Shown here piece by piece: positions 34,822 through 49,137 of a stretch of DNA of 64,000 nucleotides. Under the pieces are notes generated by a model. It did no database searches and had not been told where the DNA came from. It was given only the letters and a program-made list of their open reading frames with translations. The DNA lies in the IMG/VR virus record IMGVR_UViG_3300048691_000224; one strand, written 5' to 3'. Position 1 is the stretch's first letter; every line of letters starts with the position of its first letter. The translations under genes were made by a program, and so were the position numbers. Source of the stretch: a virus (taxonomy: Duplodnaviria > Caudoviricetes).

Positions 34822-36048
34822 TCATGTTGTTTTATAAAAATCTATAAAACTAACTAAACGCTTCAACGAAGATGCCTTTGGTATTTCTACCGAAGGTCTT
34901 AATTCCTCTCGACGTTTGTAATCGGTCAATTCTTCCGATGAAAACCCATAAAGATCGTCAAGACCTTTATTTAAAATATTAACCGCAGCGTTTAAGTCTC
35001 TATCATGATTTGTTCCACAAGAACTACAAACCCAATCTCTTATGTGTAAACCCATATCAGTTTCTTTATGACCGCAATTAGAACACGTCTTTGAAGATGG
35101 ATACCAACGATCAATTTTCTGAAAGGACCTACCATACCAGTTCGACTTATATGCAATCATAGAAACTAGAGTCGACCAAGAAGCGTCAGAAATTGACTTC
35201 GCTAATTTTCGATTCTTAACCATCCCTTTGATATTCAAATCTTCCATGCATATGGTGTCATAATTATTAACTAACCACGTGGATAAGTTTTGATAAACCC
35301 AGTTTCTTTGATTAGATAATTTAAGATAAGACCTTGCAACTTTTAATCGTTGCTTCTCATACCTAGAACTGCCATTCACCTTTCGACTTAAATGCTGCTG
35401 TTCTCGTTTTAGTTTAGATTGGTTTTCTCTAAACCATCTTGGATTTTCAATCTTCATACCATTACTCATGATGCAAAGATGTGTAAGGCCCAAGTCAATA
35501 CCGATTGAGCGACCGGTATTTTGTTTCAACTCTATAGTTTCTTCAACTAGAATTGAAGCAAAATATTGGTTTGCTTTATTTTTAGAAATTGTTACATTCT
35601 TTACAGCGCCGGAAAACTTCCTATCTATAGACATTTTGATTGGCGTCATCTTAGGAATTTTAATCCTTGAAGTCTCAAAATTTACTTGAGAATTTGAAAA
35701 TTTCTGACCCGGAATACGAAAAGAGTCTATAGAAACTCCACGTTTCTTAAACTTCATTCTGCCCAGTTTAGACTTACGAGTTTTGGAAAAGAATTGACTT
35801 TTAGTTTCTTCAAAATCCATACGTTTTTGTTGGAGTGCGTATGAAATCGAATCGTTTAACCAACTAAACTCAGGTGTATCTTTTAAGGTTTTCTCACTCA
35901 TGGGTCGGTTAGGCCCTTCTTTTGAGAATGAGTTGAAGTTTGCAACTAACTGGTTCCACACAAAACGCACAGAACCGAAGACTTCAGAAAGATACTTTTC
36001 TTGAGTCTTAGTTGGATAAATTCTGTACTTATACGATTTTAGTTGCAT
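34822..36048 (-). mobile_element. tnpB: IS200/IS605-family TnpB RNA-guided endonuclease with no adjacent TnpA
   Basis: HTH YKYRIYP..GSVRFVWN; RuvC IGIDLGL / ICMEDLN / HDRDLNAA; Zn ribbon CSNC..CSSC. Confidence 0.92.
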
Positions 36049-36568: not shown

Positions 36569-39500
36569 TTACTGCATTGCAAATTTGTTTGCAAAGACAC
36601 CAACTGCTCTCTGTGAATTACGGCGTACAAATTCAGCATCAATTTCGTCCAGAACTGCACTTGCGTCTGCGATGGTTTGTAGTGCTTCATCGCGTTCTGT
36701 TGTGTACATTGCCACTGCATCATGCAGTGTTGAGTCTGCGAGTGTTGTTAGGTCTACGTGGTTCATTTTAATTAACTTTCTTGATGTGGCTTGCAGTTTC
36801 TACAATTGATTTTAACGTTGGGGCATCGGCCCAGCATCGTCCGCGTACCTCTGCAGCATTCACGTGAAGATCATACCCAACCCCACAATCCGCGAATACT
36901 TTAACCACTTTACCACACAGTCTTGTGGGTGGTAATGAGTACGGTGCACGAAGAAATTTTCTAGGCAGTTCATATTCAATTTCATCCCCAAAACAGATTC
37001 CTGTTCCGTCTGAATAATGATATCCAGTCAGTTCACGCTCATCATATTCTGACTCCGGTGGTGATTGATGTTCTGTTGCACCTTCAAACTTTTCTTTCAG
37101 GCGAATATATGTAGAATATTCATCTTCCGTATCGAGGAGATAATGTGTAACTTTATCAATTTCAGAATGATGTGTGGAATTCAAGCCATTAACGCTCGCA
37201 TATGCGTCCAAAACTTCTTTGACAGAAAACTTTGTTGGTTCTTGTTCAACAGGAGTTGACTCAGTATACATTGGTTGTTCCGCTGGACTCTTATAATATA
37301 CTCTCTTATATTTCGCTTGTGAAAACATAATTATTTTACCTTGAGTGTGATGAAAGTGTTAGTGAGTTTGTTAGTGACTGCCTCTGCTTCTTTACGTGTA
37401 GCGAATGTTTGATAACAAATCACCACACCATTAAGATGAATTCTAACAATACACTGTTCCTGAATTACATCTGGCTCCACAAACTCAGCAATTTTCTGGC
37501 CATTCATGTACCAGAACTTTTTCGGTTCTGGTTTGATGCGATACTCGAAATCAACATTCCAAGAAGTATTGGCGCTAGCATTAATCCAAAAATCAAGAAC
37601 TGAAGCTCGATATTCTAATTGTTTTGGCTTGCCGGCTAATAGCGACTCAGTGTATTCGCGCCATACAGCATGATGCGGGTGGGTTGATTCGTAAATTTCA
37701 GGAGTTTTCATAGTTTCTTGTTTTGGTTTGCGTATGAAGATATAATCTCCACCTTCACATTCCGTATTGCATCCGTTGATAAATGCACACCCAACACAAC
37801 TACCAACTTTTGCGGTTTTAATATATCCATCAACATTTCTCATTTTATTCTCCAATTTCCACAGTCACAGTTTCACCAATCCACTTAACAAAATCTGGGT
37901 ATTCTTCACATTCTTTCTGAAGAGCAATACTTGCAGAACTACATACAGAAACATCGAATGTACCGGCTAAGTTGGTATACAAAAAGCAACGATACGAAAT
38001 AGTACGTACTTCTGGTTTCAACCTAAACACAACATCACAGTGTGCGTAATAAATTGCTTTGAGTTTTACAATTAAAATGTATGGTCTTCCTGCGAAAGAA
38101 TTTATCCAATTAATCTGATCGGTACTGTTTTGAATTGGTACACCATCGATGACGGCTTTCATTGCTTCTGCTCTAGTGATAATCATAATTTAAATTCCTA
38201 TGTTTAGTGTAACGTATGTGTGATCGACAAAACTATCATCCATCTTGATTTCACGCTTTTCGACGGGTTCAAATGTTTGGATATATTTGTTCGTACCTGG
38301 CATTTGAACAATCGCAGCATCAGGCAAATCTTTAATGAATTCCTTGAGATCTTTCACAGTCAGATAGTTCATTAATAATCTCCGTAAAGTTCATCATAAA
38401 TTTTGTCGGAATTCTCGTACCCGGTTCTCCATGAAATAAAGCATAACTGAGTCACCAATTCTGAATATTCAGTTTTATTTCTAGTAAAGTTTAGGTATTT
38501 TGAATCAATATTTTTCTCAAAAATATTCATTAAATCCAGTGTCATCATTTCAATGAGTCGCTCTACACCTGGAAACATACCACACTTGTCACCATCGCCA
38601 TATTTGCAACCGTATTTGTATTCACCTTGATAGCAGTGTGTTGAGCAAGCCATATCAAGTACCCTCTTTCAAGATATAGAGTTGTTTAAGTAACTTAGCT
38701 GCATCAATAACAGTGATATATTCTGTAACATATCTTTTTGGGCCATCAAACGAATATTGCTCGGTCTCTCCAGTTTGAAATTCAATCTTAACCTTTGAAT
38801 ATTCAATTAGTTCAATGAGAAGTTCTAGTGTGATGTTCATTATAGCGCACTCATATTACAACCCAACACCATTACATGGGACATTGGTAATCATTTGGTT
38901 GATTGCAGTATGCAAGTTAGAATCAATCCGACTTACTGTGACAACACCAAAGCACAAACCATTTTCGGCTTTGGCATAAGTTATGCCGTCAACCAAACTT
39001 TGAGCATCTTGTGGTTTCGTCTCTTCAACAGCAGGTGTACGCGCAATTAGTGTTACCGTAACACTAATTGCGGCAATTAGTGTTACCAAAATTAGCAAAA
39101 ATAAAAATTTATATAGTTTCATACTATCCTTTATAATAACCTTCAATATCAAATTCTTCAATCAGTGAATCTAACCAACGATGTCGAAATTGTTGTACAT
39201 TTTTATATGTAAGCTGGGAGCGAGGCACTTTAACAACTTCACGTAGATAAGTTTCTACAGAATGTGGAAATGCTTTATCTGGTCGCTTGGGGAATCGTGA
39301 CATAATGATGCTTCTACAAATAGCATTAACGTCACGTTGATAATCACAATAAGAAAAAGCCATAACATCAACAATAGCATTACAAATATGCATTTGTGTT
39401 GTTGATCGACTATATGAAGTAGACCCATCACACAGTCTGGATTTAGCTGATTTAAAATAATCAGAAATATTTTTATTTGATATTTTCATATAATTCCAAT

Positions 39501-47644: not shown

Positions 47645-48037
47645 TTATCGCGCTGGTGGTGAGTAGCTTTGCAATTGGGCAGCAGTGCCGCCAATCTGTC
47701 CGAGGCGAGGTTGTAAAATCTGCCCATTAGGAGTCAAGATTTTTGCAAGCTGGTGGTAGTACTCCAATGAATTCACACCATTGCCCAGTGTCTTCTGAGC
47801 CATCAACTCGTACAATGGAAACAATGTTGCTTGGCGGCCAGAGATGATATCAACAAGGCGGCGTTTGTCGATCGAATCCAAGCTGCTCAACGGAACAAAG
47901 TGAACATTTCCATTTGCATCGACATTCAAGATTGCGACCTCTTCCCATACACCAGTTCCGGTAGGGTCAATCCATCCGATGTGTGGATATTTGCTTGGAC
48001 GAATCTCGATAGGGGTTTGATTTTTGTATTGAAACAT
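47645..48037 (-). CDS. Hypothetical protein
   Basis: 130-aa ORF with CTAAATA late-like motif upstream near 48100. Confidence 0.6.
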   Translation of the reverse strand: MFQYKNQTPIEIRPSKYPHIGWIDPTGTGVWEEVAILNVDANGNVHFVPLSSLDSIDKRRLVDIISGRQATLFPLYELMAQKTLGNGVNSLEYYHQLAKILTPNGQILQPRLGQIGGTAAQLQSYSPPAR

Positions 48038-48151
48038 GATTTTATAGTAACTTTCTAGTAAAAACTCCCTGGTATTATGCAGAAGAGCGCTGGTAACGTC
48101 ACTATTTAGTATGCAAAAAACTGGGGTATTTTGACTCTAAGATGTATAGGC

Positions 48152-48180
48152 AAAAAAAGAGGCCCTTGTGAGGCCTCTTT
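48152..48180 (-). terminator. Terminator of the tmRNA transcript
   Basis: AAAGAGGCC-TCACAAG-GGCCTCTTT followed by a T run on the minus strand. Confidence 0.8.
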
Positions 48181-48500
48181 CTAGTTGTTGGGTGATAAGG
48201 TAACCAGCCTCAGCGTGTTGTCGGTGTTTAGGCGACTAACGCAAATAATTCATCGTTGTGAGTTATTATTTGTTTGCCAGATTTAACGACGTTCGTGCGT
48301 GTCGGATTGTAATTAAATTCTATTCTCTGTCAGTCGATTCTAGATCGCCCCCATCAAAAACACTATACTCGCACTGGACATAATGTTTTTGGTGGAGGCG
48401 TCGGGATTTGCACCCGATTGTTGCCAGTTTTACCAATTTAGGTTTCCAGAGTTTCTAGCCCGAGGCGGATTAGAGTACCGCACCCTTCGGAAGCTCATCA
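48152..48500 (-). ncRNA. ssrA: Circularly permuted (two-piece) tmRNA
   Basis: Acceptor piece ends ...TCGGGTGCAAATCCCGA-CGCCTCC-A-CCA at 48390. A 37-nt intervening segment follows. The coding piece starts GGGGGCG at 48352 and pairs 7/7 with G3-U70. Tag ORF 48260-48228 encodes HNDELFALVA*. The 5' end of the acceptor piece is approximate. Confidence 0.88.
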
Positions 48501-48519
48501 CAATCATTTCTTTTACTTA

Positions 48520-49137
48520 TTATAGTTGAGACAGAACTTGGTCACACCGGTCATTGATATCGAGGCAATTAACGATGATCTGTCGAGAGGTAGGAACCAT
48601 CACATCAAAGTATTTGCGCATTGTGTCATCAACAAGGCTTGTGTAGTGTTTGTTTACAGATGCTCGTTGCGCCTCGACTTGAGGTGCAAAGTGCCCACCT
48701 TCGATGAACACGACCTTGTTATATCCTGCTAGTGCGGATACACACTGGTGATAGTAATTATCCAACCAGTCAGAGCGGCTCTGAACTCCACCAAGAGCCA
48801 TCAGCGCGTATACAAATAAATCCACTGGACTACGTTCCGTGAATATGATTGGATGTTGTAGTGGTGTGTGTCTACGTTGAACTTCAAGATATGTGGATGT
48901 ATCGTCAGCGAGTTTTCTGGTGAGGATCTCATTCTGGAATTTTATTGTCAGTTCTGGATCGGAATTAATCTGATCCAGAGTGACGCCCCAATCCGTTTGT
49001 ATCGATCGTGATGATTTTCTTGCGACCACATAGTGCCCATGGCACTCACTTAGTCGAGTAATTAGGGTAGTCTTACCAGCTGATTGAGCTGCGGTTATTG
49101 CGATGATTGATGGTGTTGACATGTGGAGGTTTACCAA
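48520..49137 (-). CDS. P-loop deoxynucleoside monophosphate / thymidylate kinase-like protein
   Basis: ITAAQSAGKTT Walker A-like and FTERSPVD. Confidence 0.65.
   Translation of the reverse strand: MVNLHMSTPSIIAITAAQSAGKTTLITRLSECHGHYVVARKSSRSIQTDWGVTLDQINSDPELTIKFQNEILTRKLADDTSTYLEVQRRHTPLQHPIIFTERSPVDLFVYALMALGGVQSRSDWLDNYYHQCVSALAGYNKVVFIEGGHFAPQVEAQRASVNKHYTSLVDDTMRKYFDVMVPTSRQIIVNCLDINDRCDQVLSQL

Follow-up and report, generated by a model that had tools for sequence, protein, structure and literature searches.

A divergent, beta-like permuted tmRNA gene in a freshwater jumbo myophage

The locus and its elements

The window, that is, the whole 64-kb stretch of viral DNA analyzed here, is the T4-like replication module of a freshwater jumbo myophage. 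It encodes a clamp loader, helicases, a UvsX-like recombinase, a gp32-like SSB, two RNA ligases, a Thg1-like enzyme and a DnaB-like helicase, and its DNA is present in at least 18 freshwater metagenome runs. The nearest cultured relatives, at 37-43% amino-acid identity, are the Xanthomonas phages XacN1 and Xoo-sp13, the Stenotrophomonas phages CM1/RAS14 and the Ralstonia phage RsoM2USA. There also appears to be a mobile element inside the phage genome at 34822-36048 (minus strand), where a 408-aa ORF, in the stretch of the window with the lowest G+C (about 0.38), matches the phage 'transposase' family phrog_506 (E 4.9e-120).

The region 48152-48500 contains a permuted tmRNA gene, and direct reading of the sequence located every element that a preliminary description had assigned to it. 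The gene lies between a gene for an AAA_28 ATPase (48520-49137) and a 130-aa ORF (47645-48037), all on the minus strand. The order of its parts is permuted, with the T-arm, the acceptor 3' strand and CCA (ending at 48390) located upstream of G1 (48352). The following elements were delineated.

48459..48525, minus strand: candidate leader or promoter region between the AAA_28 stop (48520) and the RNA fragment end at 48456-48458; contains TATAAT (48525-48520) and a TCTAAT box (48474-48469), both from sequence
48390..48458, minus strand: acceptor piece (3' tRNA-like half), from covariance-model alignments, with the 5' end from an adapter junction in metatranscriptome run X20
48440-48435 and 48427-48425, minus strand: P2 5' strands UAAAUU and CUG in the acceptor piece, from covariance-model alignments and compensatory changes relative to the related contig L071
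48417-48401, minus strand: T-arm UCGGG / UGCAAAU / CCCGA, from sequence
48400-48394, minus strand: acceptor 3' strand CGCCUCC, from sequence
48393 and 48392-48390, minus strand: discriminator A and CCA, from sequence
48353..48389, minus strand: intervening segment of 37 nt, predicted to be excised during maturation, from sequence and the precursor fold; aligned to the intervening loop of the beta model
48152..48352, minus strand: coding piece, from covariance-model alignments and metatranscriptome contigs over 48193/8-48343/4 in three runs
48352-48346, minus strand: acceptor 5' strand GGGGGCG, G1 = 48352, from sequence
48345-48334, minus strand: D-loop analogue within the coding piece
48329-48327 and 48319-48314, minus strand: P2 3' strands CAG and AAUUUA in the coding piece
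48304-48287, minus strand: hairpin within the coding piece, ahead of the tag region
48228..48266, minus strand: frame-setting AUAA (48266-48263), then CU, then the tag ORF, from alignment with six phage homologues and the beta consensus
48260-48228, minus strand: tag ORF CAC AAC GAU GAA UUA UUU GCG UUA GUC GCC UAA, encoding (A)HNDELFALVA
48181..48212, minus strand: post-tag pseudoknot, in which UGAGG (48212-48208) pairs with CCUUA (48200-48196) in the hairpin loop
48207-48202 / 48186-48181, minus strand: post-tag hairpin CUGGUU/AACUAG, the loop of which holds CCUUA
48152..48178, minus strand: intrinsic terminator, a 7-bp G+C-rich stem AGAGGCC / GGCCUCU followed by a U-run, from sequence and a hairpin scan; aligned to the terminal hairpin of RF01850

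The two acceptor strands form the full stem of seven pairs that had been described, including G3:U70, and together with the discriminator A ahead of CCA this constitutes an alanine identity set. The intervening segment, for which the ability to pair had been proposed, is predicted to form a hairpin that stacks on or extends the acceptor stem in the precursor; its counterpart in L071 is 45 nt long, and the arms still pair. In some other phage permuted tmRNAs, the intervening segment reaches 100-170 nt (XacN1, L153:1563-1677; Xoo-sp13, L155:1565-1700; and the loci L120 and L122). A tag frame ending in UAA (48230-48228) and a hairpin with a U-run (48178-48152) correspond to the tag ORF and terminator noticed earlier. 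The candidate leader or promoter region might still belong to the mature RNA; a promoter scan detected no sigma-70-type promoter ahead of the tmRNA gene.

Family assignment, covariation and the tag

The search of the 64-kb window against Rfam yielded a single family above threshold, the permuted tmRNA RF04321 (48448-48228, minus strand; 73.3 bits against a cut-off of 47; E 3.7e-12), with the alignment spanning model positions 1-213, that is, the whole length. This result confirms, far beyond chance, the initial proposal that the gene is a circularly permuted phage tmRNA. When the locus alone was searched, the best match within the tmRNA clan was the betaproteobacterial two-piece family RF01850 (48471-48153, E 1.4e-23, full model 1-331), with a score of 76.9 bits that falls short of the 84 bits required for gathering. 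Compared to this model, the window copy has a shorter outer P2 region, and single-sequence folds disagree on the outer helices. The similarity to RF01850 extends into parts for which no pairing is modelled, namely the intervening loop, the tag (CAACGAUGA...GCCUAA), the post-tag strand with its CCUUnUnACCnAA loop, a motif common to the window and the bacterial beta consensus, and the terminal hairpin. The beta-specific 3' region was found as well, with a CGGGG-type strand and CCUUGUnACCnAA-loop pseudoknot (UGAGG/CCUUA in the window) followed by the terminal hairpin. The alpha tmRNA model produced weaker, partial matches to the closest relatives (46.8 bits for L071 and 73.8 bits for the contig L027), and the cyanobacterial model gave nothing on L071 and was absent or weak across the closest relatives. 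By homology, the window copy is thus best filed as beta-like, and not as a clean member of RF01850.

The two-piece tmRNA of betaproteobacteria (Sharkady & Williams, 2004, as cited in PMC9004378) and the window gene share the gene order, the break point, the tRNA-like domain with G3:U70, the intervening loop, a tag of the ANDExFAxAA type (ANDEQFAIAA in Dechloromonas), the post-tag pseudoknot and the terminal hairpin. In contrast to the bacterial genes, the window copy scores below the family cut-off, has a shortened P2, a His resume codon, an LVA tag end, the T-loop UGCAAAU and the D-loop CUAG, is AT-rich, and is carried by a virus without SmpB.

The preliminary description had warned that one-piece search models could miss such a gene, and this is the case. 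ARAGORN with default settings found no tRNA or tmRNA in the 64-kb window; applied to the tmRNA locus with relaxed thresholds, it again reported no tmRNA, and the option -ps50 produced a single nonsense call on the wrong strand. The homologous genes of relatives fall under the cut-off of the standard one-piece model RF00023. Among the phage copies, ARAGORN misses exactly the three that have a non-alanine resume codon (the window, L071 and Xoo-sp13), and for RsoM2USA and L027 it reports the wrong tag. Surveys based on ARAGORN therefore undercount phage tmRNAs, and covariance models should be preferred.

Minimum free energy and cofold predictions for single sequences yielded outer helices that are inconsistent among the window, L071 and L027, and we therefore relied only on pairs supported by comparison. 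The most informative comparison is with L071, a 17-kb IMG/VR contig that is syntenic with the window (flanking proteins 75%, 65% and 77% identical) and contains an RNA that is 80% identical to that of the window over 290 nt. In P2a, CUG/CAG of the window is replaced by CUA/UAG, with one G:C pair changed to A:U, and in P2b, UAAAUU/AAUUUA is replaced by UUGAGGU/AUCUCAA, with three pairs changed on both sides; P2 as a whole shows four double (compensatory) changes and zero pairs lost. The stem of the post-tag hairpin differs in sequence and yet remains complementary in 7/7 phage copies, with a conserved loop, and the strand that pairs with the loop covaries (UGAGG/CCUUA in the window, CCAAG/CUUGG in XacN1 and Xoo-sp13).

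A further covarying feature involves the T-loop UGCAAAU (48406-48412) and the D-loop analogue CUAG (48340-48343) of the window, a recurrent variant that is also found in many aquatic viral contigs. At least 119 stretches in viral contigs match a signature for permuted acceptor stems, and many of these contigs may be prophage borders. In the unbiased first scan, 72 distinct domains from viral contigs show the combinations G/A (52), U/G (17), G/G (3) and U/A (0) for the second T-loop base and the leading base of the D-loop 'GG' (Fisher's test 8e-14, a value that ignores the relatedness of the sequences). This covariation suggests a swapped tertiary contact at the position equivalent to G18:psi55.

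Aligning the window with six phage homologues and the beta consensus fixes the register of the tag, with UA, a three-base spacer and the resume codon, and AUAA-CU-CAC-AAC in the window parallels AUAG-UC-GCA-AAC in Escherichia coli. Published rules (PMC4236655) call for a preferred tetramer upstream and for AA at the start of the +2 codon, and the window follows both. None of the seven phage copies has a disrupted tag frame, and in each of them UA plus 3 nt lies upstream. In place of Ala, the window has a His resume codon (CAC), L071 has Gln and Xoo-sp13 has Asp; an alanine resume codon is regarded as conserved in evolution (according to a reference cited by PMC4236655), so these three codons are unusual. 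The L071 tag reads (A)QNDELFALVA, with NDELFALVA identical to that of the window, and the four nucleotide differences between the two tags all fall at third codon positions, three of them being synonymous. An intact frame in every copy, together with such third-position-only variation and a preserved NDELFALVA, is the signature of a translated sequence. The other tags differ from that of the window: ANDEVFALAA in L027, ANDSRYAVAA in RsoM2USA, ANANTFDYALAA in XacN1, DNVDSFDFAMAA in Xoo-sp13 and ANDAFYGEMRLAA in the uncultured phage G001.

RNA evidence and distribution among phages

The tmRNA gene, or part of it, was found in seven freshwater metatranscriptome runs. Four of these (X19, X20, X22 and X24) were compared with positions 47800-48900 as assembled contigs, which hence give no strand, level or true ends. 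In X20, a single contig of depth 124 matches 48198-48458 with no differences, crosses the intervening segment and runs into an Illumina adapter at 48456-48458. In X19, X22 and X24, there is a separate piece covering 48193/8-48343/4, which in X22 again abuts an adapter, and the X19 and X22 contigs contain nothing between 48355 and 48465. In X20, X22 and X24, the gene is covered (depth 124, 37 and 2, respectively) and the protein-coding flanks are empty, which makes DNA carry-over unlikely. Together, these records show a discrete, abundant RNA.

The separate coding-piece fragment fits a break near the predicted RNase P site; its end at 48343/4 lies 8-9 nt inside the predicted coding piece, not at G48352, and the X20 contig spans the unprocessed junction, both positions being those of contigs and not of raw reads. 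With respect to the expected mature sizes, about 200 nt for the coding piece is compatible with the contigs, whereas the acceptor piece, put at about 110 nt, may be shorter, at 67-69 nt, judging from the fragment end at 48456-48458.

Two side observations come from the same runs. The X20 contig matches the window as far as 48198, where 28 unrelated, partly self-complementary letters take over; the X22 contig ends at 48198 as well, and those of X19 and X24 continue to 48193. This departure in X20 could go back to strain variation, to an RNA whose 3' end falls within the loop of the pseudoknot or to an artefact of the library. Record 8 of X24, a lake metatranscriptome, contains a second, related permuted tmRNA as RNA, with the same T-arm and acceptor as the window (48386-48417) and a different intervening segment and D-loop (...GGGGGCGAAUUAGCUUCGAC).

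Permuted tmRNAs of the same kind are encoded by several members of the phage group to which the window belongs. In particular, XacN1, RsoM2USA and Xoo-sp13, the UvsX and phrog_11259 proteins of which are 37-43% identical to those of the window, all possess a beta-type permuted gene. RF04321 is above its cut-off in XacN1 (123.2 bits, with two copies in the terminal repeats), RsoM2USA (96.7 bits; MG752970.1 331728-331923, L154:1422-1733), Xoo-sp13 (65.7 bits; MN047793.1 39030-39373, L155:1501-1844) and G001 (125.2 bits). RF01850 is above its cut-off in G001 (116.9 bits), XacN1 (107.8), RsoM2USA (92.0) and L027 (91.6), and not in Xoo-sp13; the standard tmRNA model is above cut-off in none of XacN1, RsoM2USA, Xoo-sp13 and G001. 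The genomic positions of these genes differ from that in the window, and in XacN1 and Xoo-sp13 the intervening segments exceed 100 nt compared to 37 nt in the window. The XacN1 copy is located in a tRNA cluster of the terminal repeat, next to a GOLLD RNA (RF02032, 227.3 bits, cut-off 150). This GOLLD RNA lies about 1 kb downstream of the permuted tmRNA, inside the tRNA cluster (L153:2840-3253, AP018399.1 about 38570-38983), is repeated in the other terminal repeat, and is absent from the annotation of the XacN1 record and from the XacN1 paper. The permuted tmRNAs are unannotated in the records of XacN1 and RsoM2USA, and neither genome paper mentions a tmRNA. Table S1 of Buchholz et al. (2022; PMC9004378) gives the XacN1 tmRNA as 'Permuted'.

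Searches with the locus itself were less productive. The DNA of the tmRNA locus had no match in the phage collection, and no relatives of the neighboring AAA_28 protein were found. A 374-aa neighbor protein identified jumbo phage contigs at 29-43% identity; in four representative loci of these more distant relatives, no tmRNA is present beside the 374-aa gene. The generic beta signature was found in diverse bacteria, including Azonexus/Dechloromonas, Thauera, Gallionellaceae, Herbaspirillum, Comamonadaceae, Robbsia and others. The signature of the window's subtype occurs in no bacterial species representative and, in metagenomes, in one other virus only (three contigs identical to L027). A BLAST comparison with 81 bacterial copies gave no significant match to the window tmRNA. 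In a maximum-likelihood tree of 91 permuted tmRNAs, the window pairs with L071 and XacN1 with Xoo-sp13, and long branches dominate; the phage copies form long branches at the base of the beta group, none of them inside a bacterial family, and accordingly the tree appears to speak neither for nor against a single ancient capture by phages and names no donor.

Xanthomonas and Ralstonia themselves probably have a one-piece tmRNA. Alpha-type two-piece tmRNAs, some with a glutamine riboswitch, have been reported in the Methylophilales phage Melnitz and in Pelagibacter phages, and the tmRNA type of Melnitz mismatches that of its host (Buchholz et al., 2022; PMC9004378). As in the window, these are permuted ssrA genes of aquatic T4-like phages, of a type that is independent of the host; they are alpha-type, whereas the window gene is beta-type and is accompanied by no other Rfam RNA family in the window. 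The suggestion that the permuted form provides a clue to the host thus turns out to be weak, given that a beta-type gene is common to phages of Xanthomonas and Ralstonia and given the mismatch in Melnitz, and tmRNA type is an unsafe predictor of the host. The accompanying view of phage tmRNAs as mostly one-piece is correct for isolates as a whole, but many two-piece forms had already been catalogued. Among 402 phage genomes with a tmRNA, representing 133 unique forms, ARAGORN recognized 53 two-piece forms, 50 of them aquatic (Buchholz et al., 2022; PMC9004378). In the tmRNA database of 2025, 79 sequences come from phages. Two-piece tmRNAs of phages, that of XacN1 among them, are already documented.

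Proposed function, alternatives and significance

For the window gene, the gene itself, its conserved structure, the coding constraint on the tag, the presence of the RNA and the occurrence across the lineage are established, and we consider it highly probable that this is a functional permuted beta-type ssrA gene of a lytic freshwater jumbo myophage that works as follows. The gene would be transcribed as a single precursor, which host RNase P would cut before G48352, and 3' trimming would expose the CCA end at 48390, which the gene encodes. The two pieces would be kept together by the acceptor stem and helix P2, and host AlaRS would charge the molecule via G3:U70. With host SmpB and EF-Tu, it would enter ribosomes stalled on broken mRNAs, translation would resume at CAC (48260), the degradation tag (A)HNDELFALVA would be added, and the ribosome would be released at UAA. 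During infection, such an RNA might keep ribosomes free and allow truncated proteins to be recycled while host mRNA is destroyed. In laboratory strains, tags that end in LVA work as degrons of the ssrA type, and the same may apply to this tag. The three complete related genomes (XacN1, RsoM2USA and Xoo-sp13) lack an SmpB gene, and none was detected in the window (tblastn with one Dechloromonas SmpB as the query), so the activity would depend on compatibility with the host partner. The closest experimental parallel is Caulobacter crescentus (Keiler, Shapiro & Williams, 2000, as cited in PMC9004378), where one precursor likewise loses the loop between CCA and G1 and gives rise to two base-paired pieces active in tagging; that tmRNA belongs to the alpha lineage and is cellular, and its processing and activity were shown by experiment, whereas in the window both are predicted.

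Three other explanations were weighed against this reading. The RNA could be a decoy or inhibitor, that is, a tmRNA mimic that soaks up host SmpB, AlaRS or EF-Tu or blocks host trans-translation, with its tag left untranslated. The non-alanine resume codon and the lack of a phage SmpB would suit such a role, and there is a precedent in the CDS-less tmRNA-like RNA of mycobacteriophage DS6A, an inhibitor of the endogenous tmRNA in E. coli (PMC11915505). However, a decoy would be hard to reconcile with a tag frame that is intact, behind its frame-setting UA, in every phage copy and with tag differences between the window and L071 that are confined to third positions and leave NDELFALVA unchanged, and we regard it as improbable. 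Alternatively, the gene could be a functionless passenger, recently picked up from a host or at a prophage junction (tmRNA genes are integration sites) and now decaying. The possible prophage origin of many 'viral' contigs with the permuted signature and the fact that the window and L071 have the poorest covariance-model scores of the group are in line with decay, but phage genes on both sides, the synteny of the locus in L071, the compensatory changes, the abundance of the RNA relative to its flanks and the occurrence of the gene across a phage group that has diverged to about 40% amino-acid identity render this explanation very improbable.

The preliminary description had left the origin of the permuted arrangement open between capture and an independent permutation, in which a one-piece tmRNA would have been rearranged within the phage lineage, converging on the bacterial two-piece forms. 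The position of the phage copies basal to the beta group, with none nested in a bacterial family, and the lack of a bacterial species representative with the window's subtype signature could be taken to indicate such a rearrangement. Convergence would hardly account, though, for a full-length alignment to RF01850 that includes lineage-specific unpaired parts (the intervening loop, the pseudoknot with its CGGGG-type strand and loop motif, and the terminal hairpin) and the tag, for the scores of G001, XacN1, RsoM2USA and L027 above the beta cut-off, or for a break point that is the same as in bacteria. Independent permutation is thus unsupported, and we judge it to be most unlikely; homologous inheritance or capture of an existing permuted form is the alternative that the alignments support. 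Tag conservation, full-length beta homology, and synteny combined with covariation and RNA abundance thus disfavor all three competing explanations.

Within the functional reading, a more specific idea, possible but rather doubtful, is that part of the XacN1-like lineage has retuned trans-translation, or that the phage tmRNA mainly undoes the stalling caused by host abortive-infection nucleases, thus acting as an anti-defence RNA. The retuning version is based on the three non-alanine resume codons (in the window, L071 and Xoo-sp13) and the altered degron end (LVA); if it were correct, tagged proteins might be routed or timed differently from those tagged by the host.

What is new here is modest and includes a divergent family member for which there are RNA data, resume codons other than alanine in some phages of the lineage, the invisibility of the gene to ARAGORN, and the recurrence of the beta form across the XacN1-like group. 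The understanding of trans-translation is unchanged by these findings. They extend the short list of ribosome-rescue RNAs from phages by one that is expressed and has a validated structure, and show that a two-piece tmRNA of the beta type recurs in the XacN1/RsoM2USA/Xoo-sp13 group of jumbo phages.
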